From Alphaproteobacteria bacterium (lineage in GTDB: Bacteria > Pseudomonadota > Alphaproteobacteria > Bin95), in assembly GCA_965205265.1 (NCBI GenBank), contig CBDBGH010000003.1:4992001-5056000 (forward strand): DNA of 64,000 nucleotides, read 5' to 3'. Below the pieces are notes generated by a model that did not search any database, was not told where the DNA came from, and saw only the letters and a list, made by a program, of their open reading frames with translations. Positions 9,627 through 64,000 of the stretch are shown here, piece after piece. Within the stretch, counting starts at the first letter, position 1. Each line of letters begins with the position of its first letter. The position numbers and the translations under genes were made by a program.

Positions 9627-11128
9627 TCTTCGCTGTCCTCCTCGTGGTGGCTTGCGAGCCCGTCGTATCCGCCGAGGTCGTGATCGCGGACCGCGATATC
9701 GCGCAGTCTTGGATCGCCGGGCAGGTCGATGGGGATGGGTGGTGGCTCGTTGCGCTGTTCGCGCCGCCGGTTCAGGCTGAAGCGCACCGCATTGGGATGG
9801 GGGACGCCGCGCTCAAGGGCTTCATCGATGGCGGCTTCGAGTTCGACGGCTCCGTAGTCGTCGAGCAGGCGCAGCAGGGAGGCGACGGTTGTGCCGATAT
9901 TGCCGCCGCGCCTGGCGGTCTCGGCAAGCAGGCGCTCGCTGTCGGGGGCGGCCTGGAGAAGGCGGCTCTGCCCGCGCAGGCGGTGGGCGTGACGTTTGAG
10001 CCTGACCAGCTCCTCGATGTGCTCGGGGGTCTCGATGCGGGCCGCCTTGTCGAAGCTGCGCGGATGACGGGCGACGGTGTCGGCGCCGTCGAGGATGCGT
10101 ACCTCCTCCAGTGTCGCGACCACGGTGAGGGTGCGCCGCGTATGGGTATGCGGGACGCTATAGTCATTGAGGTCGAACCTGGCGTAGGGGGTCTTGCCGA
10201 TCCTGACCTCGACCCTCTCGTCGACGGGGGGCCGGTCGTCGGGCAGCGCCATCAGGGAGCCGCGCTCGCGCTCGAAGGCCTCGCGCACGGTGAGGGAGCG
10301 GTCGTCCGGCCAGCGACGGTCGGCGGCGACGCCGTCGCACCAGGCGCGGGCCCGGGCGTTCAGGTCGTCGAGGTCGCGCCAGGCGCGGGCGGCGAAGAAG
10401 TTGTCGCGCACATAGCGTATGGCGCGCTCCACGCGCCCCTTCTCGTTGCCGCGCGCGACCGCGACCGGCTTGGGCAGGAAGCGGTAGCGGGCGGCGAAGT
10501 CGAGGAGCCGGGGGTTGAACCGGATGGCGTCGCCCTGGCGCTCCAGCACGACGCTCTTCAGGTTGTCGTACCATAGCTCGCGGGGCACGCCCTGCCAGGC
10601 CTCGAAGGCCTCGACATGGCCGCGCAGGAAGTTGTCCATCGCGGCATTGAGGTAGAAGTGCAGGAAGATGCGGCGCGAGTAGCTCAGCACCATCACGAAG
10701 CCCATCAGCGGGCGCTCCGCGCGCCCGATCCTCACCTTGCCGAAGTGGGCCCAGTCCACCTGGGCCAGCTCGCCGGGCAGGGTCTTGAGGCGCAGATAGG
10801 CCTCGGCCACAGGCCGCGGGCGCTCCGGCGCGATCATGCGCCGGAAGTGGCTCTGGCTGCCCCGGTAGCCGCGCTCGACCGCCATCTGGTAGAGCCGGCT
10901 GGCTGGCAGCCTGGGCCAGACCGCCAGGGTCTGGCGGATGAAGGGCCGGAACGGATCGATCATCGAAGCCCTGCGCCGCCTCTCACGCGCGGGCGCCCCG
11001 GCGGCCGCTACCGCGCGCTCGACCGTGCCGTGGTGGACGCCGAGCTGGCGCGCGATCGTGCCGATCCTCCACTTCTCGGCAAAATACAGCCGCTGGATCT
11101 CGGCACGGGTCTGCTTGTCGATCGCCAT
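9623..11128 (-). CDS. istA: IS21 transposase IstA
   Basis: PGELAQVDWA, YDNLKS, EKGRVER, NDYSVP. Confidence 0.95.
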   Translation of the reverse strand: MAIDKQTRAEIQRLYFAEKWRIGTIARQLGVHHGTVERAVAAAGAPARERRRRASMIDPFRPFIRQTLAVWPRLPASRLYQMAVERGYRGSQSHFRRMIAPERPRPVAEAYLRLKTLPGELAQVDWAHFGKVRIGRAERPLMGFVMVLSYSRRIFLHFYLNAAMDNFLRGHVEAFEAWQGVPRELWYDNLKSVVLERQGDAIRFNPRLLDFAARYRFLPKPVAVARGNEKGRVERAIRYVRDNFFAARAWRDLDDLNARARAWCDGVAADRRWPDDRSLTVREAFERERGSLMALPDDRPPVDERVEVRIGKTPYARFDLNDYSVPHTHTRRTLTVVATLEEVRILDGADTVARHPRSFDKAARIETPEHIEELVRLKRHAHRLRGQSRLLQAAPDSERLLAETARRGGNIGTTVASLLRLLDDYGAVELEAAIDEALERGVPHPNAVRFSLNRRREQRNEPPPIPIDLPGDPRLRDIAVRDHDLGGYDGLASHHEEDSEE

Positions 11129-11129
11129 C

Positions 11130-11564
11130 TCACTCCCTTCGCGCCTGGCGCAGGCCCGGATAGACCGCCAGGCCGCAGAACCGACCGCAGCGCTCGCAGC
11201 GGAACACCCGGGCGGGACGGTCGGGCCCGAAGGGCCGGGTTCCGGACCGCCCCGCCGGTATGCGCGCCACATCAGGACGCCGGCGCGCGACGGTCAAAGG
11301 GTGATGCGTCACTTTCTGCGCGATGGCCCGAACTGCCGGCTGCCGCACACGGCGCCGTTCGCGGTAGCGCCGCTGGCGCTCGGCATGCTTGTGACGGCCC
11401 CGGCGGCTGTTCTGGTAGCGCTGCCCCGCAAGGCGCACCGACCGACGCCGCGCCCGCCCGCTGCAACGCGGCGAACAGTAGATATGGCCAGAGTCGCAGC
11501 GCCGGCAGAGAACCACCTGGCGGCGGCACAGGGCGCAGGTGAACAGGCGGGCGGCGTTCCTCAT
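11130..11564 (-). CDS. Small Cys/Arg-rich (zinc-finger-like) protein upstream of istA
   Basis: CALC...CRRC...YCSPRC and a C-terminal CERC. Ends 2 nt before istA. Confidence 0.6.
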   Translation of the reverse strand: MRNAARLFTCALCRRQVVLCRRCDSGHIYCSPRCSGRARRRSVRLAGQRYQNSRRGRHKHAERQRRYRERRRVRQPAVRAIAQKVTHHPLTVARRRPDVARIPAGRSGTRPFGPDRPARVFRCERCGRFCGLAVYPGLRQARRE

Positions 11565-16964: not shown

Positions 16965-22229
<5,265 letters not shown>

Positions 22230-22320
22230 TCGGTCCAGCAGGGAAACGACAATCCGTGAGGCATGCTGCCGATCATTCCGCCTGTCATAATGACGGACGG
22301 CGTGATGGGCAAGGGGACCG

Positions 22321-23127
22321 TCAGGATGCGGATTGCAACGGGGCCGCGGATGCTCCGCGGACGTCGGCCTCCCGGCGAATGCCACCCGGTGGCATGCCGG
22401 ATGACGGTGTGGGCGCATGCGCGTCCGCCAGGGGGTCAAAGGCCTCCGAACAGATTGGACGGCCTTCCGCGGGGCTTGCCGCACGCGATACGGTCCTGAT
22501 CGTATCGGGGTCGCGTGCGGCTACCATGGCGCTGTCGCGGGCGATGGCCAGGTTGACGGCGAAGACGGCATCTTCATCGAGTGCCGCAAGTTCCCGGCGC
22601 TCAGGACCGAGCACGAGCCAGAGGAGAACGTCGGGAGCGATCGGGCATACCAGACCCGAATTCACGGCGCCCGGCCGCGTGCCGGTGCGCGGCGCGCCGG
22701 CGGCCAGCACCGACGGGTGCCCCAGCAGGAGGCCCGGGTGCCGGAGGGTGAAGAGGCAAAGCCCGGTCGCCTCGAGAAGCCGGGCGGCGACGGGGGCGCC
22801 CGGGGCGTCGGGCTCGAACGCCGTTCTCCTGTGCTGCGCCACCATCCAGGCGCAGAGAAGCGCCCGGCTGTCCTCATCTATCGCGGGCGGCCTTCCGGTG
22901 CGTGCCTGGTCGCCCAGCCGTGCCGTGATCGTTCCGATCGGGTCCGCGGAGCCGTTGCCGTGCAGGGAAACAAGGGTTTCGGGCAGGCTCTGGCGCACGG
23001 TATCCACCGGCCAGTCGCGCTTGCGCCACCAGAGCGTTCCGTCATCGCCGGCGAAACGGCGCGCAAGCCACGGAAGAATCCCGGTCCGGACGCCGGATTC
23101 CTTCGAATTCCCGTTTGTCATGTTCAT
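22321..23127 (-). CDS. Hypothetical protein, possibly a degenerate DUF4238-like protein
   Basis: LPWLARRFA..., LVCPIAPDVLL and VFAVN weakly resemble DUF4238. Confidence 0.4.
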   Translation of the reverse strand: MNMTNGNSKESGVRTGILPWLARRFAGDDGTLWWRKRDWPVDTVRQSLPETLVSLHGNGSADPIGTITARLGDQARTGRPPAIDEDSRALLCAWMVAQHRRTAFEPDAPGAPVAARLLEATGLCLFTLRHPGLLLGHPSVLAAGAPRTGTRPGAVNSGLVCPIAPDVLLWLVLGPERRELAALDEDAVFAVNLAIARDSAMVAARDPDTIRTVSRAASPAEGRPICSEAFDPLADAHAPTPSSGMPPGGIRREADVRGASAAPLQSAS

Positions 23128-26504: not shown

Positions 26505-27188
26505 TCACCGCCGTGGACTTGGTATGTCATGACACGCCCGAGCAGTCGTCCATGGCGAAATGTCCGGCGATGCCCAGGACGGTTGCAATGCCTCCAGATA
26601 GGCGGCTTCGCGCCGGTATCGCCGCGCGACGTCGGGATCGTCCATGTCCAGATGCTCCTGCAGTTCCTCGATATCGACGAGGTGCAGGTTGCGGCCGACG
26701 CGCTTGAGGTCGCGGTAGGCGGCCGGGGCCGTGGCGAGCCTGAGGCGCGGCGGGTCCATGACGATCGTATTGCGGACAATGTCGGCGGTGGACCGCTTCG
26801 TGTGCGTGAACTCGATGGTGCCGTAGGGGGTCCGGAACGTCCCCTTGCGCCCCGTCGTCATCACGGTGAGGTATCGCATGGGGAGCTGGGAGATGACGCC
26901 CCACTCCGAAAGGGCGCATTCCAGGCTGGTATAGTTGTATTCGCCGCCGCGCATCGCGGCGGCGATCTCCTCCAGCAGGCGTCCGTGGCTGCGCCGCGAC
27001 AGGGGGTTGAAGTAAATGCCCTTGCCGACCCGCTCGAGCAGGCCGGCCCGCACCAGGCGGCCCAGGCTTTCCGAGAGGGTCTTCGCGGACTCGTCCGGGA
27101 ACATCATCCGCATGTCCGGGAAGGTGAACACGGCGCGCCCGCACCGGTCCCGGTCCGTCAGCGTCCTGATGGCGGCGACAATGCGCAT
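26505..27188 (-). CDS. Type IV TA antitoxin, AbiEi family (orphan)
   Basis: wHTH LERVGKGIY, YTSLECALSEWGVISQ, TPYGTIEFTH. Confidence 0.85.
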   Translation of the reverse strand: MRIVAAIRTLTDRDRCGRAVFTFPDMRMMFPDESAKTLSESLGRLVRAGLLERVGKGIYFNPLSRRSHGRLLEEIAAAMRGGEYNYTSLECALSEWGVISQLPMRYLTVMTTGRKGTFRTPYGTIEFTHTKRSTADIVRNTIVMDPPRLRLATAPAAYRDLKRVGRNLHLVDIEELQEHLDMDDPDVARRYRREAAYLEALQPSWASPDISPWTTARACHDIPSPRR

Positions 27189-40982: not shown

Positions 40983-41222
40983 ATGCGCCATCGCCACCTG
41001 GTCGATACGGAAGTTGCCGCCCGGTCGCCTACGGCGGTCGATGACATCATCGAGCGCGGCCTGATGGATGACTGGCTGAGGCTTCGCCGGTGGTGTACCG
41101 AGGATCCGGGGCTGCTGGACGTCGTGGAGCAGGTCTGCAACATGCATGTCGCCGATCCGGGCGCGCAGCGCCACCATTTCTGGCTGTTCTGGGCCCGGAT
41201 GCGCCGCGATGCGGCAGCCTGA
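40983..41222 (+). CDS. Small putative antitoxin
   Basis: DDIIERGLMDDW motif. Overlaps the downstream nucleotidyltransferase gene. Confidence 0.6.
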   Translation: MRHRHLVDTEVAARSPTAVDDIIERGLMDDWLRLRRWCTEDPGLLDVVEQVCNMHVADPGAQRHHFWLFWARMRRDAAA

Positions 41223-42009
41223 CTGGGAGCGGGTGATTTCCGCCGCTGCGCGTCTGCAGCGGCATTTCCCCGAAGCGGTTCTGGTTGGCGGAACCGCGGC
41301 CAGCATTCATTCGGGGCATCGTTTTTCCCAGGATGCCGACCATGTGGTTGTCGATCTTCGGGAACGGTTCGACGAAGTTCTCGCCAGTCTGGAATCCGTG
41401 GCGGGCTGGAAAACCGCACGTATCAGGCCCCCTGTATTGATCCTGGGGTCTCTGGATGGGATCGAGACCGGGATCAGGCAGCTGATACGCACCGACCCCC
41501 TGGAGACGGTCGAGATGGTCTGCCACGGCGAAAAAGTCGTGGTTCCCACCATAGAGGAAACGCTGCGCATCAAGGCCGTCCTGATCCTGAAGCGGAACGC
41601 CTTGCGCGACTATCTCGACTTTGCGGCGATCGGGGCAAGCCTTGGACATGACGGCATTGCGAGGGCGATGTCCTCCTTCGACGAGTTGTACCCGCAGGAC
41701 AACGGCCAGTCTGCAACTCAGCAGTTGCTGGCGCAGCTGTCCAATCCCCTTCCCGGGGACCTGGGAAAGGAAGGAACTGCGATCTTCAGCGGCCTGGCGG
41801 AAGACCTGCAGGAGTGGAGTGCGGTGAGCGACCGGTGCCGCTCCATCGGCGCCATGCTCTTCGACGGGTTTCGCGACCCGGCTTCGGGGCCGGCGGGCCT
41901 GTCCGGCCGGCAGCCAGCGAGGAGGCGGGAGGGATCGGACGCCAGCGCTTGGACGCCGCCGACACTCAAACCGCCCGGCAACACGGATGACCCGTTCGGG
42001 ACGGATTAA
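41209..42009 (+). CDS. AbiEii/AbiGii-like nucleotidyltransferase toxin
   Basis: VLVGGTAA...HRFSQDAD, K...KRNALRDYLD. Confidence 0.75.
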   Translation: MRQPDWERVISAAARLQRHFPEAVLVGGTAASIHSGHRFSQDADHVVVDLRERFDEVLASLESVAGWKTARIRPPVLILGSLDGIETGIRQLIRTDPLETVEMVCHGEKVVVPTIEETLRIKAVLILKRNALRDYLDFAAIGASLGHDGIARAMSSFDELYPQDNGQSATQQLLAQLSNPLPGDLGKEGTAIFSGLAEDLQEWSAVSDRCRSIGAMLFDGFRDPASGPAGLSGRQPARRREGSDASAWTPPTLKPPGNTDDPFGTD

Positions 42010-47986: not shown

Positions 47987-49192
47987 ATGGGCCGCCGGAC
48001 GGTTCAGGTCGATTATGGCGAGACCGTCAGGATGATGGAGCCGATGGTCCTGTCCCCGGGCGACGACGGGATGGACAGGCTTGTCCACCTGGTGGTGGAT
48101 ATGGACCGCGGGAACGGGGACCTGCAGCGGCTTCTTCCGGAGGCGCTGAAGCGGCCGCTGATCGCCCTGCTGCGGGTTGTCGATGCCCATTTCGGCGACG
48201 CGATGGGGATGCTGCATCCCCTGCATCCGGAGGACATCGAAGGAGGCCTCCAGGGAAGGTTCCTGAACTGCGCACGGGACAGGGCCCGGCAGTGTGAGGC
48301 GGTCGCCCATGTGCGGGCCGCGGAATGGCTCGACCGGGAGACGGCAAACTATCACCCCGCCGGCGAATACGTCCTCGGCACACTTCACCGGTTGCTCGGT
48401 GAGGAAGGGTTCCCGGAAAACCGGCCTGCATTCGACCCGGGCCGCTACCGGAGGGACACTGTGTCCGTGGGAGCGCACGATCCCGTGGGCCCGGAGGACG
48501 TGCCGCGCTGCATGCGCCGCTTCGAGGACACCTATACGGTCCTGTCACCGTCGGATACGATGATGAATGCGGCGGCGATGCATCACCGCCTGCTGTGGAT
48601 CCATCCGTTCCGGGACGGGAACGGGCGAGCCGCCCGTCTGGTGACACGGCAGTTCCTGTCCGGCGCCATGGGGTCGCTCTACTGGTCGCTGGCACGGGGA
48701 TTGGCCCTGGAGAAGCCGGCCTATTTTTCCTTCCTGAAGGTCTGCGACCGCGGGCGGTTCGACAGCAGGGACGGGCCGGGCCCTCTGAGCCGGGGAGCCC
48801 TGGTGGCGTTCACGGAGTGGTTCCTGACGGCCTGCATCGGCCAGATCGGCTTCATGACCGAGTGCTGCACGCCATCGGTTCTGCAGGACCGGATCCGGCG
48901 GTGGGCGGCGGAGGAAGAGGCGGCAGGGCGTCTTCCCGAGGAAAGCGGAACGGTGCTGGTCGCCGCGATGGATGAAGGTTGCCTGACGCGGGGCCGGGTA
49001 GGGGAGATCGCGGGCCGCGGCATCCATCACGGTCGTCTGATCGTCAAGATGCTGCAGGCGCGCGGGCTGCTGGCAACGAGGCACGGTCCGCGCTCGCCGC
49101 TGCATCCGGCGCTGCCGGTTTCGGCGGCTCGGGCCTGGTTTCCGGGCCTCTTCCCGGCATTGCAACAGGCGGAGGAAGGAAAAGCCGCATGA
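47987..49192 (+). CDS. Fic-family protein with C-terminal wHTH
   Basis: HPFRDGNGRAAR. TTGACA at 47924 lies inside the inverted repeat GGATTG...CAATCC. Confidence 0.9.
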   Translation: MGRRTVQVDYGETVRMMEPMVLSPGDDGMDRLVHLVVDMDRGNGDLQRLLPEALKRPLIALLRVVDAHFGDAMGMLHPLHPEDIEGGLQGRFLNCARDRARQCEAVAHVRAAEWLDRETANYHPAGEYVLGTLHRLLGEEGFPENRPAFDPGRYRRDTVSVGAHDPVGPEDVPRCMRRFEDTYTVLSPSDTMMNAAAMHHRLLWIHPFRDGNGRAARLVTRQFLSGAMGSLYWSLARGLALEKPAYFSFLKVCDRGRFDSRDGPGPLSRGALVAFTEWFLTACIGQIGFMTECCTPSVLQDRIRRWAAEEEAAGRLPEESGTVLVAAMDEGCLTRGRVGEIAGRGIHHGRLIVKMLQARGLLATRHGPRSPLHPALPVSAARAWFPGLFPALQQAEEGKAA

Positions 49193-53777: not shown

Positions 53778-53924
53778 TCAGGCCCACCCCACAAACAGTG
53801 ACACGATGACCACCAGAGCCGATAGTTCCCCGATGGCCGGCTAGGTTATCCGCCTGTCGATTCCAGGAGTCTGGGCAGGAGGCGTGAAAACGCCAAATTG
53901 CGGTCCAGGGGGGAGGAAAGACGA

Positions 53925-53954
53925 CAGCCGCCGGACGATACCGTCCGGCGGCTG
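53925..53954 (-). terminator. Hairpin downstream of the cas operon
   Basis: 13-bp perfect stem CAGCCGCCGGACG / CGTCCGGCGGCTG followed by TCGTCTTT on the minus strand. Confidence 0.65.
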
Positions 53955-53980
53955 CCGGGAACCGGACTCAGGCTGAAAGT

Positions 53981-56173
53981 TCAGCCGTTGCCCCGCGCCT
54001 CGAAGAGTCCGCCTCCGTGGTGGGACGTGCGGCCGAGCATGACAGGCCCGGCCTGGGCGGCCCGGAAGGTGAGCCGGACCCACGCGTCGATGCCGCCCCG
54101 CTCTCCCGTGACGATGGAGGTTCCGAGAATGTCGATCTTCTCGGCCGCGGGCAGCCGGGCCCGATGCATCTCGGTCCTGATGTCCTTCTCGACAAGGGCC
54201 GGAACCGGCCGGTTCCTTTCGATGAACCGGGTGACCCGATAGGGGGTAATCGTCTCCCATACGCGGCTCGGGACAAACAGCGGGTCGCTGTCGGCCCGGA
54301 CGGGGACCGGCTCGGTGCCCAGGACCCCTTCGGCGCCGGCGACGATCTCCCTCATGCCGGACACGGCCTGTTCCACGAGCCTGTGGCCCTCACCGATCTC
54401 GTCGGGGAAGTTGCCATCGGCATTGCGGTGACCGGGCGCCAGCCACAGGATGCGGCGGCGCGCGAGATCCGTGCAGATGAACACATGCCGGTGCCTGCCG
54501 TCGCGCGAGCGGATCGGGCCGCTCGAGTTGACCGGATGACCCGACACATAGGGTGGAAGCCGACGCCGGCGGCCGATCAGGTCCTGCGCGCGGGCCATCA
54601 TGGCCCGCCGCGCGGCCTGCGTGACGGCCATCGGGTCCGCATCCCGCCCGATATCGGAAACGATCTGCAGTGCCGTGATGCCGGAGGTCTGCTCCTCGGG
54701 GCGCATCAGCCCCAGCCCGAGAAACCGGCCGTCGCCGACAAGGACGGGACCGGAAACGGGTTTCGAGAACTCGATTTCGGCATGCCAGAGCCGGGACTGC
54801 GAGAACCGGGTTCCCGGTGAGAAGGAGCGCGAATGAAGCCCCTCGTTGTCGGGGGAGGTGCGCCGCACGGCAACGGACAGGGCCGGGATGGTGATGCCGG
54901 CATAGCGGAGCGCCTTCCGCACGGCCTGCACCGCATGCTGTTCGCCGCGCCTCACATCGGTGCCCGAGACGGCGCCGCGCTTCTCGCGCGGCCGCTCCGG
55001 CACCGCGATCGGGGTGACGGTGCGCCAATAGCGCGACCTGCCCTCGTACCGCTCGACCATGCGGCGGCTGCCGCCCGGGTGGAGTTCCGCCCGGACCGAG
55101 CCGTCTTCACGGGTCCACGCAATCTGGGAGAAAGCCCAGGAGACCTCGTCGCCGGGAATCGGGCAGGAGCGCGGCACATAGACGGCCACACGCCGGATCA
55201 TCATGTCGGAGTCCAGGTGGCCTATCGAGGGGAGGGGAACGATGCGCACCCTGGACAGGGCGTCGTCGCGCTGGACGCCGCGGCCGATCAGGAAACGCTC
55301 GACCGTGTCGGCGAGGTCGGGAGAGTTCTCCCGGATCAGCCCGGCGGCCCGGTCGCGGATATCCTCGACGAATGCCACCGCACGGTCGAGCGTGGTTGCC
55401 GAGTAACCGCGTCCCTCGCCGTCCAGGACGTCGAACAACAGGCGCTCGTCGGGCGTATTGTAGCGCACGGGTGCAAGCGCGGGCTTGGCGGGCTGCTCGA
55501 AGACAGCGACGTCGTTCCGGCCCAGGCGCTCGCGCGAAAAACGCGACAGGTTCTGCCTGTGACGCCTGCGCAGACTTTCGAGGGAGCCGGGTTTGGGGCA
55601 CAGCAGCGATGGCCCGGCGCGGCCCCGGTCGGAAGGGGTATAGACGACGATCCCGGGCTGCTGGAACAGGAGGTCGCGTTCCTCGGTGTCAATGATCTTC
55701 CCGGAACCCCAGGCCTGATCGAAACCCCGTCCGAGCTGGTAGATCGCCCTGGCCGCGTCGCAGACCTCCCGGGCGTAGCCGGTCCGGTCCCCGTTATTCC
55801 CGATATCCCAGCAATAGTGGATGGGGATGGCCTCATCGAAGATCCGGTATTGCTGCGGTTTCGGCACCTTGATCGAGGCAAGCGCCTCGTTGAGGTCCAC
55901 CGACGGCCCTCCCGGGATGGCGGAGTCCATGTCGTTGTTCGGGACATAGGGCGTGACGCCTTCATGCCGGGTCGCCGGCGGGGCGCCGATGACAGGCGGT
56001 GCGAGGCCCTCGAGCCAGCCGAGAGCCTCGAGCAGGCCGGGGCGGACGGTGCCGCCCTCGGCCGACCCGGCAATCAGCGCCTGGAACACACGGCCGGGCG
56101 CCGGAGGCCAGTCGCCCGTGCCATGGTAGCGTCCTTCGCCGAACCGGACGCTCAGGAGGAGGGACCGGCTCAT
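53981..56173 (-). CDS. csb2: Type I-G CRISPR Csb2 (Cas5/Cas6 fusion)
   Basis: GRYHG..DWPPAPGRVFQAL, YVPNND, GPVLVGDGRFLGLGL, GPVMLG..SHHGGGLF. Confidence 0.92.
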   Translation of the reverse strand: MSRSLLLSVRFGEGRYHGTGDWPPAPGRVFQALIAGSAEGGTVRPGLLEALGWLEGLAPPVIGAPPATRHEGVTPYVPNNDMDSAIPGGPSVDLNEALASIKVPKPQQYRIFDEAIPIHYCWDIGNNGDRTGYAREVCDAARAIYQLGRGFDQAWGSGKIIDTEERDLLFQQPGIVVYTPSDRGRAGPSLLCPKPGSLESLRRRHRQNLSRFSRERLGRNDVAVFEQPAKPALAPVRYNTPDERLLFDVLDGEGRGYSATTLDRAVAFVEDIRDRAAGLIRENSPDLADTVERFLIGRGVQRDDALSRVRIVPLPSIGHLDSDMMIRRVAVYVPRSCPIPGDEVSWAFSQIAWTREDGSVRAELHPGGSRRMVERYEGRSRYWRTVTPIAVPERPREKRGAVSGTDVRRGEQHAVQAVRKALRYAGITIPALSVAVRRTSPDNEGLHSRSFSPGTRFSQSRLWHAEIEFSKPVSGPVLVGDGRFLGLGLMRPEEQTSGITALQIVSDIGRDADPMAVTQAARRAMMARAQDLIGRRRRLPPYVSGHPVNSSGPIRSRDGRHRHVFICTDLARRRILWLAPGHRNADGNFPDEIGEGHRLVEQAVSGMREIVAGAEGVLGTEPVPVRADSDPLFVPSRVWETITPYRVTRFIERNRPVPALVEKDIRTEMHRARLPAAEKIDILGTSIVTGERGGIDAWVRLTFRAAQAGPVMLGRTSHHGGGLFEARGNG

Positions 56174-56177
56174 CGGG

Positions 56178-57257
56178 TCAGGCCGCCTCGTCGGCGGGGA
56201 GGCCGATATCGCGGCGGGCCCTCGCGCGCTCGTAGGCAACCGACCGGCTCGGCCCGACGCCCCATTCGGCCGCCGCGGCGCGGGCGACTTCGACCGCATT
56301 CCCGGCATTGAGGTCGAGCGCCTCGCGCTGGCCGTTATGCATCACGACTTCCCATGACGCCGTCCTGTCCGGATCCAGCGTCAGCAGGCAGCCCTGCCGG
56401 AGGAACAGGTTCGATGGCGTGGTGGCCGCGACAACAGCGAGGCCGAGCAGGTAGCGGCGCATGGCTTCGCCCTTCTCGCCGCGCAGGCGGCGAAGGGCCA
56501 CCAGGTTGATCGTGGTGGAGCGGATGATCTCGCCATGCACGATGACGCCGCCAAGCTCCTCGCCGACGCTCGGCACCGTGGAATAGCCGCGCCCGGAGAG
56601 GTCGTTCTTGTGCCTGACGGCCTCCTCGTCCGTCACGATGCCTTCCTCGCGAGCGGAGATGGTCGGATTGTACACGGAGCTGCGCTCGATTTCGTGGGCA
56701 TCGGTTGCCCGGATCACCGACTGGATGATCCGCGGAATCTTGACGCCGCTCGCGCGGGAATCCCAGCAACCGAACAGGGCCGATGTCGGGGCCATCTTGA
56801 CGAGTGCCGTATAGTCGTCGGCATCCTTGATCGTCAGGAAGATGGTCTGGATTTCCCGGTCGAGTTCCGTGCCGCGAAGGGTGGCGTCGGCGAGCCGGTG
56901 CGCGAAGGTCAGGATCGAGGCCACGCGGTCATTGCCATGCGTGACATCGATCTGCGGCACGAGATCCGCCAGAGGGTTCTCCTCGCCGTGCCGGCGCATG
57001 AAGACGGGTTCCATCTGGTTGGCCTGGCTCGCCACGCTGTCGATCGTCACGATCGTGCTGCCGTCGCCGAGCGTGTCGATGTTGTACCTCGACCTTTTCC
57101 CCGTCGGGTCCTTTTCGGACCGTGGATAGGACGGGGGGAAAATCACGGAGTGGTGGCCTTCGACCGGCATCAGCGCCTGCTGCAGCGTCAGCGCAACCGG
57201 GCCGTCGCGGTCGTTCGCGCAGAGCGTCGCGAACGCGGTATCGAATTCCGTTGTCAT
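56178..57257 (-). CDS. csb1: Type I-G CRISPR Csb1 (Cas7)
   Basis: IFPPSY, IDSVASQANQME, HRLADA, PTSALFGCWDS, LRQGCLL. Confidence 0.92.
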   Translation of the reverse strand: MTTEFDTAFATLCANDRDGPVALTLQQALMPVEGHHSVIFPPSYPRSEKDPTGKRSRYNIDTLGDGSTIVTIDSVASQANQMEPVFMRRHGEENPLADLVPQIDVTHGNDRVASILTFAHRLADATLRGTELDREIQTIFLTIKDADDYTALVKMAPTSALFGCWDSRASGVKIPRIIQSVIRATDAHEIERSSVYNPTISAREEGIVTDEEAVRHKNDLSGRGYSTVPSVGEELGGVIVHGEIIRSTTINLVALRRLRGEKGEAMRRYLLGLAVVAATTPSNLFLRQGCLLTLDPDRTASWEVVMHNGQREALDLNAGNAVEVARAAAAEWGVGPSRSVAYERARARRDIGLPADEAA

Positions 57258-58141
57258 TGAGTCCTCTCTTCGGTTACCTGGTTGATGGACCTCGCCCGGT
57301 TCGGGCCCTGAGGTTCGCCGCATACGACGCGGAACAGGCGGAATGCCTGTCCCGGGACGACCGGTTTGCGCATGCCCAGGGCGGCGCGCAGGAATATCGG
57401 GTCGTGCAGCTGCCCGTTCTCGATTCCAGCGACGCCGTAACTGAACAGCAGCCGCGTGATATGGGCGGGCCGGGCATGCGTCAGGCCGATGGCTGCCAGC
57501 ACCTCCACGAGGGGGTAGCCTCGCGTGGTCATGGCCTTGCCATGGGCATTCAACGAGAAACCGATCTCGACCGGGATATAGTCCGACCGCCAGTCGAAAC
57601 GCATCCGGCGGCCGCCCACCCGAATGGACGACATCGAGAAAGGGTCTTCCGCATGGTCGAGAATGCCCTCGTCCCGGGCCGCCTCGAGACAGTGCTGGAC
57701 GATGAGGGCGCCGGGCGCCCCGCCCATCCCCGTCCAGAACTTCGCTGTCTCGCGTCGGGCCTCGTCGCCCCAATGGTCGATGACGATCCGCTGGGCGCCG
57801 TCGTCGAGCAGCGCAGGCAGCTTTGCCGGCGTATCGAGATGGGGCATCGGGAAGGCAATGCCCGGCGTAACCGAGGTCTCGACCTTCTCCGCCCAGCTGC
57901 CCAGCACGCAGGGAGAGCCGGGCGGCAGGAGCATCGAGACCCTTGCGTTGTCGAGAAACTCCAGCACCCTGCGGACCGGGTCCACCTCTCCGGGCGTCTC
58001 GATTTCGAACCGGCCTTCGGCTTCGCACCAGGAGAAGCCGCCCATGGCTTCGCCCGCAAGACTGTTGGCGGCCTCGAGAAATCCCAGGCAGGCAAAGACC
58101 TGGCCGGGATTCAGCAGGTCGACCGGAATCGACTGTCTCAT
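57254..58141 (-). CDS. cas8: Type I-G short Cas8 (GSU0052/Csb3-type)
   Basis: VDLLNPGQVFACLGFLE, FDWR, IGFS, PLVEVLAAIGL..ARP. Sits between cas3 and csb1. Confidence 0.85.
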   Translation of the reverse strand: MRQSIPVDLLNPGQVFACLGFLEAANSLAGEAMGGFSWCEAEGRFEIETPGEVDPVRRVLEFLDNARVSMLLPPGSPCVLGSWAEKVETSVTPGIAFPMPHLDTPAKLPALLDDGAQRIVIDHWGDEARRETAKFWTGMGGAPGALIVQHCLEAARDEGILDHAEDPFSMSSIRVGGRRMRFDWRSDYIPVEIGFSLNAHGKAMTTRGYPLVEVLAAIGLTHARPAHITRLLFSYGVAGIENGQLHDPIFLRAALGMRKPVVPGQAFRLFRVVCGEPQGPNRARSINQVTEERTQ

Positions 58142-60894
58142 CGGTAGGCCTCCTCGATGGCCGCCTGGAACTGCGCGCGCGAGGCGCGGTAGTTCGCCGA
58201 GCGCAACAGGGATTCCCACCACGCCAGTCCCCATGGTCCCCAGATGCGTTGTTGCCGCGCATAACGCTGTGCGATCGCCAGGCCTTCGGTGGCGGCGTGC
58301 CGGGGCGGGAGGTCATCGGCGCCCTTGATGCCTATGACCGGACGGGCCTGGCCGTGATGCGACGCGATCAGGTGCAGCGCCAGCTCGAAGCGCGGGTCGT
58401 CCCGGGCAAGATCGAGGCCGTTCCTCGCCGCCAGAACTGTCGAGACGAACTCGTGGCGGTAGCGCGACAGCATGCTTCGTTTCAGGCGTTTGGCGGACTT
58501 GGCGTAGGGGTTTGCCGCCCAGTCCGAAGGCACGCCATAGGCGCGCTGCCACCGCCGCACGGCCTTGCCGTCGTCGTGGTGACGCGCCGCGGTGACCAGC
58601 ATGGCCCTGTCGGCCGCCTGTAAATCCAGGGCATCGGCGATATGGGCGGCTTGACCGCATACCTCGCGCACATGATCCTGGAGCGTTTCCGCCTTCAGCG
58701 AGGTGGCCCGGTGCCGTTCGCCGGACTCCGCTCCGTCGCGCGCCTGCACGGACAACCAGCGCAGGGGCATCTCGTCTTCGTCCAGACGCCACACGAACGC
58801 ATCGATTTCCTGCCATACGACGCCGTCCTCGACGATGGCGCCGCGGTCGGCTCCTGTGGAGACGCGGATCCGGTAGGGCGAGGCCGGAAGGTCTCCGGAG
58901 GCCTCGTTCCCTAGGCCCCAATTGTCTTCGGGGGTCGAAACGGCGGTGTCCGCCTTGATATCCAGGTGGCCGGCGGCGAGCCCGCCAAGACGGGCATCGA
59001 CGACGAGACGCCGTCCCCATAGCCGCCGGCTGAAATTGTCCTGCGCGGCCCGTGAGGCCCGCGACAGGTTAATCAGGTCCCGGTGGACGAGCATTTCCCG
59101 AAAGCTGCCGCTCTGGCTGAGCACCACGGCGACCGGTGCGTCGGGGCGCTTGAGCGGATAAAGGTCGTCATGGACCGGTTCGGGTTCGGCGGTTGCGCCC
59201 GCGACTGCCGCCACCCTGGACAGCAGCCAGGCCAGCACGTCGGCGCTGTCGGCCCAAAGGGTTTCGGCCTGCAGTGATCGGGCGGCCTCGAAAAAGGTCT
59301 CGACATGGTAGCCGTAGGGTGGGGAAAAACGCCGTCCGCGGTCCGTGTCCTGCATGATGACCGGCAGATAGTGGCGCCAGAGCACGGATGTGCGCGGCGC
59401 GCGTTCCTGCCAGCCATGCAGCCAGGGCCCTATGCGAGGCCGGCCGGTATGGGAGAAAAGGGATGTCATGGACCAGGAATCGACTGTCGCCCGTTCCAGG
59501 TCCGGGTAGAGCGGCACGGACGGGGCGGCGGCCCGGACGGACCGGCGAAGGTCCTGACACCGGTAGATGGCCGACAGGGCTTCGGGTCCGGCCTTCACCA
59601 TATCCGCTCCGGCCGGCGGGAGGCCGGAGAGCAGGGAGCGCACGGCGGTGATCGCGGGGTCCACCCGTTTTTCGTCCGCGGTCCTGTCGATGACGGCAAT
59701 GCGCGCCGTGCGGTCGCCGCTGCGCCCGACCCGGCCGAACCGGCGCACCATGCGCGGCCAGTCGCCCACAAGGTCGCAGACCATGGCGTCGGCGTCGAGA
59801 TCGCTGGCGATTTCCCCGGCCAGGGTGGAAATCAGGAAGCGCGGAGCGTCCATGTCGCGGGGGCGGCCATCGCCTGTAAAGCCGCTCTCTGCAAGCCACT
59901 CCGAAAGTTCGCGGCGCTCGCGGGTGCGCTGGCCCTCGAGCAGGAGGGCGGAATGTCGGCCCGCCGGCTTTTTCCCGAGATACCGGTTGATGCCGGCCAG
60001 GATGCGCAGGGCATCCTCACGCGCATCGACGAAGATCAGGATGCGCCGTTCCCCGTCCTCCGCATACGCCCGCGCCCGGTCCACGACTTCGGAAGCGAAG
60101 GCGGCGCCCCGCGCCGGACAGCCATGGACCGACAACTCCTTGTCGGCTGCCAGGCGCTTGGCGATAACCGGATGGGACAGGTCCTCGGCTTCCAGGGTGA
60201 AGAGGCCGGTAGTGGCGCGGTTCACCTGGCCCGAGCTCGCCATGGCCATGACGCGCAGCCCCGGCAGGAGATGCCTGTTGGCCGAATCCGGGGCGCCGAA
60301 CTCATGGGCGCCACGCTCGATTCGGCGCAGCAGGCTCTCGAAAGACGGCATGAGGTCGCGGTCATCGAGCACGATCAGACAGTCACAGGCGAGATTGGCG
60401 GCGGCCAGGGACCGCACGGAGCGATGAAGCCCGTATCCGCTGAAGAGCAGGGCCGAGCCGATCATGTCGACGGAACCGACTATGACCGACGGCAGGTGGG
60501 GATGATAGAGCCAGTCCGAGGAATCGACCCAGGCGCCGCGGAGCGTCGCGATGGGCAGATGTCCGTCCTCGTCCAGACCGAGGCCCTTCCGCAGGGCTTC
60601 CGAGCCCTGGACGGCGGCATGGGCCGCCTCTGCAAGTGCTGTCGCCCGGTCGATGACCGCGGCGCTGTGCACGACATAGGCAAGGCGGCGCGGCACGGGA
60701 GCCCCGGCGGCTCGCGCGGCGAGCCAGACGGCCATCACGGAAGCGCGTCCGCTTCCCGCCGGAATATCCACGACGGGCGGAACGGCACCGCCCATGAAAC
60801 CGTCATGAAGACGTTCGTGCCAGGGAAGGGGCGGGTGCCCGGTTACAGCCTCGAACAGTGCGCTCAATGATGGATTTCCGGCTTTCTGCTGCAC
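58138..60894 (-). CDS. cas3: Type I-G Cas3 (C-terminal HD) with degenerate catalytic motifs
   Basis: I-G architecture (TGHPPLPW, PRRLAYVV, VDMIGS, HDDGK, YRHE, HHG). GTG start at 60894 with AGAGGA RBS. Confidence 0.9.
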   Translation of the reverse strand: MQQKAGNPSLSALFEAVTGHPPLPWHERLHDGFMGGAVPPVVDIPAGSGRASVMAVWLAARAAGAPVPRRLAYVVHSAAVIDRATALAEAAHAAVQGSEALRKGLGLDEDGHLPIATLRGAWVDSSDWLYHPHLPSVIVGSVDMIGSALLFSGYGLHRSVRSLAAANLACDCLIVLDDRDLMPSFESLLRRIERGAHEFGAPDSANRHLLPGLRVMAMASSGQVNRATTGLFTLEAEDLSHPVIAKRLAADKELSVHGCPARGAAFASEVVDRARAYAEDGERRILIFVDAREDALRILAGINRYLGKKPAGRHSALLLEGQRTRERRELSEWLAESGFTGDGRPRDMDAPRFLISTLAGEIASDLDADAMVCDLVGDWPRMVRRFGRVGRSGDRTARIAVIDRTADEKRVDPAITAVRSLLSGLPPAGADMVKAGPEALSAIYRCQDLRRSVRAAAPSVPLYPDLERATVDSWSMTSLFSHTGRPRIGPWLHGWQERAPRTSVLWRHYLPVIMQDTDRGRRFSPPYGYHVETFFEAARSLQAETLWADSADVLAWLLSRVAAVAGATAEPEPVHDDLYPLKRPDAPVAVVLSQSGSFREMLVHRDLINLSRASRAAQDNFSRRLWGRRLVVDARLGGLAAGHLDIKADTAVSTPEDNWGLGNEASGDLPASPYRIRVSTGADRGAIVEDGVVWQEIDAFVWRLDEDEMPLRWLSVQARDGAESGERHRATSLKAETLQDHVREVCGQAAHIADALDLQAADRAMLVTAARHHDDGKAVRRWQRAYGVPSDWAANPYAKSAKRLKRSMLSRYRHEFVSTVLAARNGLDLARDDPRFELALHLIASHHGQARPVIGIKGADDLPPRHAATEGLAIAQRYARQQRIWGPWGLAWWESLLRSANYRASRAQFQAAIEEAYR

Positions 60895-60967
60895 CTGTCG
60901 TCCTCTGTCTCGGTGTTGGACCAGAACGTCCCTTGCGACGCTAAAACGCTTGTCACCCTCATAAATC

Positions 60968-60996
60968 ATAATACGAATATAATTCGTCCCTGTCAA
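60968..60996 (-). promoter_or_regulatory. Sigma70 promoter of the cas operon
   Basis: TTGACA-17 nt-TATTAT, with internal palindrome ACGAAT-ata-ATTCGT at 60973-60987. Confidence 0.85.
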
Positions 60997-61065
60997 CCCG
61001 CCGGCCGTGTGGTGCGATTTGTTGTTTTTTGTCATGGTGTGCTAGGATGCATCCGCGCTGGAAAG

Positions 61066-61178
61066 CCTTCAGGTCATGACGGCGCCGGGCGATATTGAAG
61101 GGCATTGTGATTCATGAGCCGGTCTGCTGATCGGCGATGGTTTCACAACCGGAGCGGATGCTCCGGTCTCATTGATGT
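61066..61178 (+). CRISPR. One-spacer CRISPR-like mini-array (degenerate repeat, spacer, repeat)
   Basis: Repeat 2 (61143-61178) TCACAACCGGAGCGGATGCTCCGGTCTCATTGATGT has the I-G hairpin plus CTCATTGA. Repeat 1 keeps the handle ATTGAAGG (61094-61101). Spacer 61102-61142. Confidence 0.75.
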
Positions 61179-61180
61179 GT

Positions 61181-61210
61181 CGGCCCGGGAGAATGCGGGC
61201 TCCCGGGCCG
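61181..61210 (+). terminator. Hairpin closing the mini-array transcript
   Basis: 11-bp stem CGGCCCGGGAG / CTCCCGGGCCG with a weak T-tract after it. Confidence 0.55.
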
Positions 61211-61411
61211 CGGTTGTTCTGTGTGATAGCCGCTCCGGATTTCGTGGGGAACCCGGTCCCGATATTGTGGAATAGCCGTTTCAGAAACTGCAGTGCCTTG
61301 TGTTTCAGCTGACACCGGAATTCGCATGGCGGATTTCCGGGCCGGAGTCGACGCCAATTCCCGCTCGGTAGTGGAGACGAGGGTCGTCCCGTGTTATGAG
61401 AAGATGTGCCC

Positions 61412-61534
61412 GTGACCTTCCACACCGATGTGCTCCGCGAGCCGCGGAAGCGGCTGTGGGAGATGCTGGGCGGCACGCCGCCGGGCTTCGTCCTTTACGG
61501 AGGCACGGCCCCGGCATTGAGGCGGCTGGGGTAA
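61412..61534 (+). pseudogene. N-terminal remnant of an AbiEii-type toxin
   Basis: VTFHTDVLREPRKRLWEMLGGTPPGFVLYGGTAPALRRLG* contains the FVLYGGTA signature. Confidence 0.7.
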
Positions 61535-61539
61535 TCAGG

Positions 61540-62565
61540 ATGCGCGACAAACCGATTGGCGCGATCTGGCGGCCGGTGCGGGATCTGGCTCCTGAGCATC
61601 GCGGCTTTTCGCATGAGCCCGCCCGGCAGGCGGCTCGCCGCTGGCAGGAGAGCAGGAAGAAGCTCGAGGACCCGGAGATCGACCGGTCCTCCATGGATGT
61701 GTGGCTCCGGTCGCAGAGACGGGCCTTTGCCATCGAGACCGGCCAGATCGAGGGCCTTTATCTGTTGCGCCGGGGCGTGACCGAGACCCTGATAGCCGAA
61801 GGCTTCGACAACGTCCGGGGGGCCCATTCGGCAGGCGACATTGACGATGACACCATCAAGGGGCTGCTACAGGATCAGGAGACAGCCCTTGAGATGATGT
61901 TCGCGCATGTCAGGGAAGAGCGCCCGCTGACGACGTCGGCGATCAAGGAGTGGCACGCGCTCCTGACGCGGCACCAGGACACGGCAACGGGCATCGACCC
62001 GTTCGGGAAGAAAATCGAGATACCGCTGCGCCGGGGCCAGTGGAAAATACGGTCGAACAATCCCCGCCGGCATGACGGGATCATCCACGAATACTGTCCG
62101 CCGGAGCAGGTGGAAACGGAGATGGAGCGTTTCCTGAAATTCCACGAGGAACACGCTGGCCTGAACCTTGCGCCGGAGACGGAAGCTGCCTGGCTACACC
62201 ACGAATTCGTGCGCATCCACCCGTTTCAGGACGGCAATGGCCGTATATCGCGGCTGCTGATGGCTTACGCCTATGCCAGGGCAGGTGAGTTCCCGCCCGT
62301 CATTCCGGCGGAAAGGAAGGATGACTATATCGATGCCCTCGATGCCGCGGATGAAGGAAACTTCCCGGCGCTGGTCGAGTATCTGGGCGATCTGGCGGCA
62401 GGCCGCTCAAGGGCGGCGGCGCTTCGGGCAGAAGGCATCGTGGCCGGGCGTACGCAGTACCGTCACGGCAATGGCGGCATCACCTCGAAGGGCACTTACC
62501 GTTCACTTGAGGCCCTGGGCAGTGACTGGGAACCGCCGTCGCCGTCGCCGTTCGACGATGATTGA
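61540..62565 (+). CDS. Fic-family protein
   Basis: AIETGQIEG, HPFQDGNGRISR. Confidence 0.9.
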   Translation: MRDKPIGAIWRPVRDLAPEHRGFSHEPARQAARRWQESRKKLEDPEIDRSSMDVWLRSQRRAFAIETGQIEGLYLLRRGVTETLIAEGFDNVRGAHSAGDIDDDTIKGLLQDQETALEMMFAHVREERPLTTSAIKEWHALLTRHQDTATGIDPFGKKIEIPLRRGQWKIRSNNPRRHDGIIHEYCPPEQVETEMERFLKFHEEHAGLNLAPETEAAWLHHEFVRIHPFQDGNGRISRLLMAYAYARAGEFPPVIPAERKDDYIDALDAADEGNFPALVEYLGDLAAGRSRAAALRAEGIVAGRTQYRHGNGGITSKGTYRSLEALGSDWEPPSPSPFDDD

Positions 62566-62989
62566 GGGGGCAGGTGAGATTCCGGACGAGATCCTGCTTG
62601 GGGTGGCGCGGCGGGTGGTCTGGTTCCAGCCGCCGCAGGAGACGCTGCAGGACGAAGTCCAATTCCTGAGCCATGTCATGATCTACGGCCTGCCGGAGGA
62701 TGTGGTCGCGGTCCGCGATGCCTATGGCGACGAGGCATTCCGCAACACCTTGCGCAACGCCTGGCCCGGCATTTTCGACCCGCGCTCCTGGTTCTACTGG
62801 CACACGGTGCTCGACATGCTGCCCGTGCCCCCGCTTCCCGTCCGCCGCTTCCCTGTGGCGCCGGGGGAGCCGCCCCTGGAGGTGCATCCTTCCCTGCAGG
62901 GGCATGGCGGGCCGCCCAGAGGGCGCAGATATTCGACCAGCGCCGGCATGGTGCCTCGCCCTCCCCCGGGAGGAAGTGCGGCAGTCTAG
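62558..62989 (+). CDS. Small protein typically paired with AbiEii toxins (putative antitoxin)
   Basis: RRVVWFQPP...FLSHVMIYG...PGIFDPRSWFYWH...PPLPVR. Confidence 0.6.
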   Translation: MIEGAGEIPDEILLGVARRVVWFQPPQETLQDEVQFLSHVMIYGLPEDVVAVRDAYGDEAFRNTLRNAWPGIFDPRSWFYWHTVLDMLPVPPLPVRRFPVAPGEPPLEVHPSLQGHGGPPRGRRYSTSAGMVPRPPPGGSAAV

Positions 62990-63864
62990 AGGAAGCTCGG
63001 CTGGGGTTGGCGTTCGGCGGCAAGCGGATTGAGCCACAGCACCTCGGTGCGTTCCAGGGCGCCGTCGGCGAGGCTGGCGCGCTCGACTTTCGTCCAGCCA
63101 CGCAGCTGCCGGTCGTAGAGCCGGGACGGGTAGGCCGAGAGAATGACCATGCCGTGCAGGCGCTTCAATGCGTTCAGGAGCGCGCGATGGTCGTCGGTAC
63201 TCATCTCGTGCGGGTAGGAATGGTAGCGTTCGCCCTTCTTTTTCTTCGTTGACCGGGTTCCGGGAAGGTAGGGCGGATCGCAGTAGAAAAGGGTTTCCTC
63301 CCCGTCGTGCATGGTCATGACCCTGATCGCGTCCCGTTTCTCGATCACGACCCCGCGAAGCCGTTCGGTGAAAGCGGGAAGGGCATCGGGATAATTCATC
63401 CAGTCGCGCGAGGCGGTCGTGCCGGACTGGTTCACGCGGGCGCGGAAACCCGTCCTGACGGCCCGGTTGTGCCCGTCGGACCCGAATCCCATGAGTGAGC
63501 GCACGACAAGGCGGCGGGCGGTCTCGTAGGGCTCGTCCGTCGGCTCGTAGGCCTCCTCGAACTCGGTGCGCGAGAAAGGCGTAAGCTCAAGAAGATTCCG
63601 AAACCGGGCGGCCTGAACAGGGTCCCGCAATATCCTGAAAAGCGCGACCGCCTCGTCGTCGAGATCGTTGTATATCTCCACGGGCGCGCGCGCCTTCCTG
63701 AGGAGGACGGATGCAGCGCCGCCGAAGCTCTCGACATAGCGCTTGTGCTCCGGGAAATGGGACACGATCCACGGCGCCAACAGCCACTTGCCGCCATGCC
63801 AGCGCAAGACCGGTCGCTTGGGAGGACAGGGAGGCGGCGCGGTAAGGAGATGGCCGTCATACAT
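62986..63864 (-). CDS. Dam-like DNA adenine methyltransferase (orphan)
   Basis: WHGGKW, YVESFGGAAS, YCDPPY. Confidence 0.92.
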   Translation of the reverse strand: MYDGHLLTAPPPCPPKRPVLRWHGGKWLLAPWIVSHFPEHKRYVESFGGAASVLLRKARAPVEIYNDLDDEAVALFRILRDPVQAARFRNLLELTPFSRTEFEEAYEPTDEPYETARRLVVRSLMGFGSDGHNRAVRTGFRARVNQSGTTASRDWMNYPDALPAFTERLRGVVIEKRDAIRVMTMHDGEETLFYCDPPYLPGTRSTKKKKGERYHSYPHEMSTDDHRALLNALKRLHGMVILSAYPSRLYDRQLRGWTKVERASLADGALERTEVLWLNPLAAERQPQPSFL

Positions 63865-64000
63865 CTTCGGGGAAACCGTCTCTCCGCGGTGCCGGTGGCT
63901 ATCCGGGCCCGGGCGCATCGTCGAGGGCGGGCCCGGAGCCATTGTCCGGAAGGCGGACCGGACGGTCGGCCGCCCGGAATTGCACCGTCTGCCGGACGTC

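Follow-up and report, generated by a model that had tools for sequence, protein, structure and literature searches.

What remains of a type I-G CRISPR–Cas effector when its genes are intact, yet its Cas3 has lost the residues of the helicase motor? The question is raised by a four-gene operon, cas3g-cas8g2-csb1-csb2, found in an alphaproteobacterial genome of 5.7 Mb and 68% G+C. The operon occupies positions 53981-61035, on the minus strand, of the window, i.e., the whole 64,000-nt stretch of DNA that was analysed (G000:C3:4992001-5056000), and lies on the 5.46-Mb chromosome within an accessory region rich in insertion sequences (IS). The ATPase/helicase of its Cas3g is predicted to be inactive, and the system is probably a derivative of type I-G (Cas8g2-type) whose interference module has ceased to degrade targets processively.

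The effector operon and the motifs of Cas3g

The four genes form a complete type I-G effector, and each protein scores above the curated NCBIfam cut-off applied to it (Table 1), with Pfam agreeing for Csb1 and Csb2. The stop codon of cas3g overlaps the start of cas8g2 in an ATGA, as does that of cas8g2 with the start of csb1, and 4 nt separate the csb1 stop from the csb2 ATG. All four reading frames are uninterrupted. The effector genes are intact and translationally coupled, in agreement with an earlier sequence-only reading of the window that had listed them as intact, tightly packed open reading frames (ORFs), and the operon is present in a single copy in the genome. By gene content, the system is type I-G; it departs from the subtype in two respects, in that adaptation genes are missing at the locus and Cas3, judged by its sequence, is not catalytically competent.

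Two details of the gene models bear on the comparisons below. The longest ORF of cas3g begins at ATG 61035, but GTG 60894 is the more likely start, because it is preceded by GAGGA and homologue alignments begin near it. Csb2 extends approximately 240 amino acids (aa) beyond its family profile at the C terminus. The same extension is found in an active relative of the same genus, G016 (tblastn over residues 1-724), and a new domain gained by the 730-aa protein is rejected, the Csb2 of G016 being equally long.

The motifs of Cas3g were called against the canonical paralogue of the same genome, against 59 homologues from a 90%-identity collection, and then against 250 homologues of at least 700 aa. 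The helicase reads PWH for PWQ, AGSGRA for TGLGKT, HSAAVID for DRRAVVD, LDDRD for LDEAH, ASS for SAT, and RRFGRVGR for QRLGRVNR. The losses cover motifs Q, I, Ia, II, III, and VI; motif I is changed from K to R and from T to A, motif II from E to D, and motif VI from Q to R and from N to G. The canonical paralogue (L006, 727 bits) harbors PWQ, TGSGKT, DEVQ, SAT, QRFGRANR, and the Asp of HD motif V. Four of the five HD motifs of the query are intact (H, HD..GK, RHE, and HHG), while the fifth reads RSAN for RAAD, such that the motif V Asp is replaced by Asn (residue 926). In Cas3 HD domains, motif V supplies a ligand of the site-1 metal (PMC3727216). This position is Asp in the other full-length homologues examined and Asn in the query and one further protein, P0001. 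All of the substitutions that the sequence-only reading had listed, in essentially every helicase motif and at LRSAN in the HD domain, are present and hold against the paralogue and both homologue sets.

P0001, a protein of 913 aa that is 49-50% identical to the query Cas3g, is the only one of the 250 homologues to share the multi-motif loss, and the search for orthologs with the same pattern yields this one. It keeps GAGKT but has DSQE for DEAH, SSS for SAT, RRFGRVGR for QRLGRVNR, and RGAN for RAAD; the other HD motifs (H, HD..GK, RHE, HHG) are intact in both proteins alike. A third homologue, P0247 (862 aa, 39% identical), has DDAH for DEAH, SAM for SAT, a deletion of HD motif II, and HQ for HH; it looks like an independent case of Cas3g decay with lesions unrelated to those of the query and P0001. 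P0228 is a deviating row that is truncated at the N terminus. In a further set of 79 Cas3g ORFs from metagenome contigs, scored with seven strict motif patterns, 73 pass all seven, five fail the HD motif V pattern yet retain its Asp, and one fails the Walker A pattern; multi-motif loss is found in none of the 79.

Age of the loss and constraint on Cas3g

In a tree of 47 sequences and 828 columns, the query and P0001 are sisters (support 1.0, stem 0.65) nested inside active I-G Cas3g proteins, and they carry the same derived residue at 11 conserved columns, some of which lie in motif III, in motif VI (with Q to R and N to G), and in HD motif V (with D to N). Because the sisters share these identical residues, the helicase loss is placed before their split. 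The best homologue of the query Cas8g2 is P0257 (55% identical). P0257 and P0001 each come from a contig of 302,850 bp, and since the contigs match in length, the second dead locus very probably keeps its Cas8g2 too.

The distribution of the losses was examined at 139 columns that are at least 90% conserved in 249 homologues and that were split at residues 1-420 (84 columns) and beyond (55 columns), an analysis that depends on MAFFT alignments of diverse proteins. The query keeps 115 of the 139 columns and P0001 keeps 109, whereas homologues longer than 850 aa keep 137 at the median and never fewer than 114. In the query, 22 of the 84 columns of the helicase half are lost vs 2 of the 55 of the C-terminal half (Fisher p = 4e-4); the corresponding losses in P0001 are 25/84 and 5/55. 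The two RecA domains (RecA1 and RecA2), which are the most alike region between active pairs at 58-77% identity, are only 45-49% identical where a dead copy is compared. In contrast, the HD domain is the best-kept region, with 64% identity between the two dead copies.

The divergence of Cas3g as a whole is unexceptional. Identities of the query to active G016 are 42.6% for Cas3, 50.0% for Cas8, 51.1% for Csb1, and 44.9% for Csb2, and those between active G016 and G005 are 55.9, 35.6, 68.0, and 58.6%, respectively; the ratio of Cas3 to Csb2 identity is 0.95 in both comparisons. On these alignments, Cas3g diverges no faster than its partners, and the relaxed constraint is confined to the two RecA domains. 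Contigs of four DNA runs (X3-X6), compared over 17 kb, show no difference within the cas genes; differences at L028 8662-9264 in these runs stem from short contigs of paralogous sequence.

These results bear directly on the possibility that the system is a relic nearing loss, with its adaptation genes deleted, its array eroding, and its Cas3g inactivated under no remaining selection. Such an end stage is unlikely. The lineage is very rare, and the lesions of P0247 demonstrate that Cas3g decay does occur. However, the four ORFs are intact with coupled starts, the inactivating changes are common to a full-length ortholog that has since diverged to 50% identity, and the losses cluster in catalytic columns rather than along the whole protein. 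Furthermore, the terminal branches are of ordinary length (0.54 for the query and 0.63 for P0001 vs a median of 0.50 and a 90th percentile of 0.77 for the other 44 tips).

A reason for keeping a dead helicase is offered by the architecture of the subtype. The I-G Cas3 is an integral subunit that is held via Cas8g and co-purifies with Cascade only when Cas8g is present (PMC9638904); the proposal that Cas3 is a stable subunit of the I-G effector is thereby borne out. Linear double-stranded DNA (dsDNA) is almost completely shifted by Cascade only in the presence of Cas3, and stable dsDNA binding requires it (PMC9638904). A complex of Cas3g residues 431-943 with Cas8g2 is predicted with a score of 0.84, the best of three controls reaching 0.00. 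Among solved complexes, 58 of 80 attain this mark, as do 2 of 110 mismatched pairs; the counts are rough owing to author-made alignments. At least 93% of contacts agree among the docking runs, the partner has a predicted local distance difference test (pLDDT) of at least 79, and the predicted Cas8g2-binding residues of Cas3g fall at 485-522 and 877-908. Of the 36 interface residues, 20 equal the family majority, compared with 191 of 513 across the C-terminal part. The predicted complex expresses the confidence of a model and is no measurement. A sequence search of Protein Data Bank (PDB) chains returned no match for Csb2 or Cas3g; Cas8g2 was outside that search.

Because the losses fall in the helicase half, the HD domain is the best-kept region, and the predicted Cas8g2 interface passes its controls, the pattern argues for scaffold retention over decay. 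The earlier suggestion of a selective loss in a retained protein is upheld in this sense: the loss is shared with a 50%-identical ortholog, and the rest of the protein, especially the C-terminal half, is constrained.

Arrays, adaptation genes, and surroundings

A candidate source of guides for the effector lies outside the window. Array-like repeats are absent from the window itself, and the claim that the system has no multi-spacer array holds for those 64,000 nt; it does not hold for the locus, where a cognate-looking array of 11 repeats (array A) lies 3.5 kb beyond the window end. The array was missed because the window ends short of it. It starts 6,456 nt upstream of the ATG of cas3g, toward which its leader is turned, and a scan of the replicon adds three orphan arrays, B, C, and D (Table 1).

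Array A has a period of 71-83 nt (with one interval of 55). Each of the 11 units closes with ATTGAAG and one further base, this 7-nt tag being invariant while the remainder of the repeat varies. The first two units are identical, the third has one base inserted, and later units are increasingly divergent. A GC hairpin of 6-9 bp stands just upstream of the tag in 10 of the 11 units, with stem sequences that differ. The units were delimited by the tag, and their regular spacing leaves no room for a tag-less unit inside. A constant tag beside a stem that varies yet can still pair is a sign of selection for processing and loading, in the absence of the homogenisation that frequent spacer uptake would bring. 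At least eight repeat variants among 11 units would also suit an array eroding in a relic, although a tag that stays invariant across all of them while the rest of the repeat varies speaks against that view.

The leader-proximal end of array A is polymorphic. In run X3, which comes from a different sample of the study, a contig of 9.4 kb and depth 417 joins L028 14491 to 14566 and is devoid of repeat 1 and spacer 1 (74 nt, L028:14492-14565 = C3:5059492-5059565), with 36 nt that fit either side; the rest of the 17 kb is identical to the genome. The difference may have arisen by a recent deletion between repeats 1 and 2, the only identical pair, or by a recent gain of the unit in the present strain. 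Directly downstream of the array, at C3:5060795-5069100 (L014:7792 onwards), lie approximately eight tandem DUF6878-like paralogues with a mutual identity of 30-36%.

Arrays B-D were found by scanning for the tag together with the leader motif ACCGCTCGAAA. They lie 170-240 kb from the operon, such that four arrays with this leader and tag occur in one 240-kb region. The leader arrangement ACCGCTCGAAA..CCTTG..CAAGG and the ATTGAAG tag are common to arrays A-D and to the array of a canonical I-G system in the same genome, whereas each orphan array has a hairpin sequence of its own. The canonical locus (C3:3405000-3424000, L027) is of the Cas8g1/Csx17 type and encodes an intact Cas3g, csx17, csb1, csb2, Cas4g/Cas1g, Cas2, and 34 repeats; the leader of its array (C3:3410098) shares the architecture of the array A leader, and a Cas protein with a DxTHG motif adjoins the locus. 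The genome also contains I-C-type arrays at four places, two arrays with a common 36-nt repeat, and a further array with a different repeat beside a Cas1.

The coexistence of two I-G systems raises the possibility that the dead complex modulates the canonical one by competing for CRISPR RNAs (crRNAs) or targets, for example by shielding sequences from degradation. A complete canonical locus with 34 repeats, leaders and 8-nt tags that are alike in the two systems, and four arrays with such a leader and tag within 240 kb speak for this arrangement. The proteins are nevertheless very different, with Cas3g of the two systems 25-29% identical and no tblastn match between the other three, and the arrays have no known spacer in common. 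There is no direct evidence against such modulation, which is very improbable.

Nothing at the locus appears able to add spacers. A tblastn search with the Cas4/1 of G016 detects no remnant (E below 0.1) in C3:5035001-5080000, and none of the five Cas1 matches of the genome is near the locus or in the window; cas2 was not searched separately. The sequence-only reading was right, within the same limits, that the window has no adaptation module. Among 16 genomes of the same genus, three encode a Cas3g that is 44-46% identical to the query with all motifs intact, and adjoining cas4/1 is visible in two. In G016, csb2-csb1-cas8g2-cas3 occupies one strand; after it, the other strand carries cas4/1 together with an array that has at least 16 repeats. 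In the query, the array sits in the matching relative place, and five unrelated genes stand instead of cas4/1-cas2: Fic, a D12 methyltransferase, a weak DUF6878 match, one gene without known family, and an RNase T-like exonuclease. A promoter and terminator scan of this cas3g-to-array interval found nothing above the shuffled expectation. Missing adaptation genes at the locus would, together with the IS-rich neighbourhood, suit a relic.

Table 1. Coordinates of the effector genes, the associated arrays, and flanking features (window positions unless prefixed)
Feature	Coordinates	Strand	Remarks
cas3g	58138..61035	-	TIGR02621 453 bits (cut-off 400), profile positions 3-854 of 854; C-terminal HD domain
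cas8g2, short I-G large subunit, 295 aa	57254..58141	-	TIGR04106 173 bits (cut-off 125)
csb1/cas7g, backbone subunit, 359 aa	56178..57257	-	TIGR02570 113 bits (cut-off 38); PF09617 121 bits
csb2, Cas5-Cas6 fusion, 730 aa	53981..56173	-	TIGR02165 280 bits (cut-off 45)
GC-rich hairpin then T-rich run	53917..53955	-	just 3' of csb2 stop; seen by eye, unscored
cas3g-array interval (6.4 kb), start	61036..64000		cas4/1-cas2 here in active relatives
Fic gene	61396-62565	+	divergent from cas3g
D12 methyltransferase gene, 3' part in window	62986 onwards	-	
Array A	C3:5059492-5060261 = window-equivalent 67492-68261 = L014:6492-7261	+	outside window; 11 repeats, 10 spacers
Array B	C3:5227470-5227802	+	5 repeats, without cas genes
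Array C	C3:5280013-5280200	-	3 repeats, without cas genes
Array D	about C3:5293120-5295700	-	approximately 27 units, very heterogeneous repeats, without cas genes

The hairpin and T-rich run that follow csb2 are a likely operon terminator. The gene downstream of it encodes 312 aa with a weak ATP-grasp match and is absent from the loci of active relatives; sitting beyond the terminator-like hairpin, it is not counted as a member of the system. The Fic gene of the interval has a 76%-identical paralogue at C1:138044-139084, on a 193-kb contig.

The wider neighbourhood harbors two IS21-family types, IS4-like and IS630-like transposases, two Fic genes, AbiE, and ankyrin and pentapeptide proteins. 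Two identical IS21-family copies bracket the operon and array A, at C3:5000841 (window 8841-11272) and C3:5063234-5065665; the element encodes an IstA-like protein of 549 aa and an IstB of 261 aa, and the chromosome contains no fewer than 14 full, identical copies of it. No tyrosine recombinase or integrase lies nearer than about 100 kb or in the window, the window has no tRNA, and no VirB4 was found genome-wide. Repurposing of the system by a mobile element, as proposed earlier, is therefore not shown by these features, IS-rich as the region is. RNA-guided transposition is likewise rejected, since the nearby transposases all belong to multi-copy IS elements. Elsewhere in the window are a 1,839-aa protein with a DEAD/Helicase_C module and a UvrD-type helicase module (16965-22484, minus strand), the second Fic gene (47987-49192), and parts of a type IV toxin-antitoxin system 14 kb apart (AbiEi-like at 26505-27188, minus strand, and AbiEii-like at 41146-42009, plus strand). 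Pentapeptide/DUF7007 and ankyrin-repeat families occupy the space between the IS copies.

Proposed working and relation to known systems

In the proposed working, the array transcript would be cut by Csb2 and the crRNA would assemble with Csb1, Csb2, and Cas8g2. The dead Cas3g would remain docked on Cas8g2 as a structural subunit, kept because the complex needs Cas3g to hold DNA, and the complex would lock onto matching DNA without ATP-driven unwinding. With no gene at the locus apparently able to add spacers, the set of guides would be all but fixed. At the target, the complex would purely block transcription or replication, or else the HD domain would nick the displaced strand once. The block is slightly favored over the nick, given that both orthologues have an altered metal ligand in motif V.

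A nick would make the system a natural nickase immunity, in which the helicase is dead, the HD domain cuts the displaced strand once with Asn serving as a metal ligand, and the replication of plasmids or phages is stopped; the system would then be a cutting defense system and no regulator. The T. sulfidiphilus (Thioalkalivibrio sulfidiphilus) I-G Cas3 variants K39A (Walker A) and D164A (Walker B) bind and nick DNA without degrading it (PMC9638904), and they protect against phage P1 and, when fully induced, against a plasmid (PMC10482374). An engineered helicase-dead I-G Cas3 that still nicks indicates that helicase loss alone does not make the system non-cutting. The earlier description of the system as non-cutting goes beyond what the sequence shows, with the HD domain being the best-conserved part of the protein and such Walker A/B mutants nicking and protecting (PMC10482374). 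Conservation of the HD domain as the region most alike between the dead orthologues, with H, HD..GK, RHE, and HHG intact in both, is what a nickase would be expected to show. However, the site-1 metal ligand of motif V (PMC3727216) is Asn in both orthologues, and the remaining HD ligands may serve folding alone: the HD-site variant D625A behaves like a cas3 deletion and is aggregated (PMC10482374). Single-strand cutting of this kind is conceivable but rather doubtful.

The block would correspond to a natural "dead-Cas3" Cascade, in which the integral Cas3 acts as a non-catalytic clamp within a hard-wired, crRNA-guided DNA-binding silencer that is served by non-adaptive arrays (array A and perhaps the three orphans). 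This silencer, which is put forward tentatively, would be the type I counterpart of type IV or dCas-like silencing, reached via inactivation of Cas3 and not its loss.

Several observations weigh against a retained, non-degrading silencer with fixed guides. The HD domain retains all catalytic residues other than the motif V Asp, and cutting by it would be possible. No spacer target was found in any collection searched. Against their own genome, the 10 spacers of array A give only partial matches of 16-22 nt, and the 32 spacers of arrays A-D give three of 17-21 nt; against 50,697 phage and 72,556 plasmid records, nothing better than E = 0.06 was obtained for array A; spacer 1 has no exact match in IMG/VR viral contigs; and 37 genomes of the family contain only repeat matches or weak hits. 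The polymorphic leader-proximal unit of array A could mean that spacers are still added in trans, and the canonical I-G system of the genome, the leader of which is similar, could be the one that uses the array. The dead lineage is also sparsely sampled. An exhaustive search of 1.84 billion representatives returns only the query fragment itself and P0001 at 50% identity or more to Cas3g, and a lineage with two members in the collections searched also fits an evolutionary dead end. The DNA encoding P0001 was not found in genome contigs (three loci were returned, 34-37% identical), among 37 genomes of the order, or in metagenome contigs (the best of the 80 loci kept is 41% identical). Lastly, Cas8g2 of this lineage has become rather divergent too: of 136 columns conserved among its 118 nearest homologues, it retains 107, and none of these homologues retains fewer than 124, although they form a narrow clade and the comparison is weak.

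Set beside canonical I-G systems (formerly I-U) of the Cas8g2 form (GSU0051-GSU0054 models), the present system has the same four effector families in the same order, a C-terminal HD domain on Cas3, and hairpin repeats of 36-40 nt that end in ATTGAAG; its array diverges from cas3, as in active relatives of the same genus. It differs from them in the lost helicase motifs, the HD motif V Asn, the heterogeneous repeats, and the lack of cas4/1 at the locus (cas2 was not searched separately). The biochemistry of I-G is known from the Cas8g1 form of T. sulfidiphilus, while the present system is of the Cas8g2 form. Similar to the engineered K39A and D164A proteins (PMC9638904, PMC10482374), Cas3g would stay in the complex, support binding, and be unable to translocate. 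Unlike these variants, which have a wild-type HD domain and nick, the natural protein has a changed HD ligand and many more drifts in the helicase. It is also a product of evolution that has been kept in two diverged lineages.

To our knowledge, CRISPR systems that bind without destroying are described as having lost or replaced Cas3. Type IV-A, with its DinG-associated silencing, and the Cas3-less type I modules of Tn7-like transposons are interference-defective derived class 1 systems. The present system would share with them a Cascade-type, crRNA-guided recognition without processive shredding by Cas3 and, as is usual among them, the lack of an adaptation module of its own. In contrast to systems that lost or replaced cas3, the gene is kept here as an inactivated subunit, and unlike type IV-A, CRISPR-associated transposons (CAST), and HNH variants, the operon is without a linked transposase, HNH, or DinG, the nearest transposases being ordinary IS copies. 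PMC10910872, which lists Cas3-less variants, mentions Cas8-HNH and Cas5-HNH forms as well as a Cas3-less I-C "DNA binder"; its main text has no I-G entry. Among the papers listed by full-text literature searches, there was no natural helicase-dead I-G Cas3; the 2025 classification update was outside the scope of those searches and may list one.

The finding concerns a subunit that is kept yet catalytically gutted in the only type I subtype in which Cas3 is built in and is needed for a stable R-loop. If the reading of a retained, non-degrading effector is true, the structural role of Cas3g is itself under selection, and the protein is a naturally occurring separation-of-function allele of Cas3g. 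The operon would then provide a compact, four-gene, non-shredding Cascade that is testable for programmable repression or nicking. In addition, heterogeneous arrays that keep the hairpin and the tag indicate what Csb2 and Cas5 need to recognize in a repeat.

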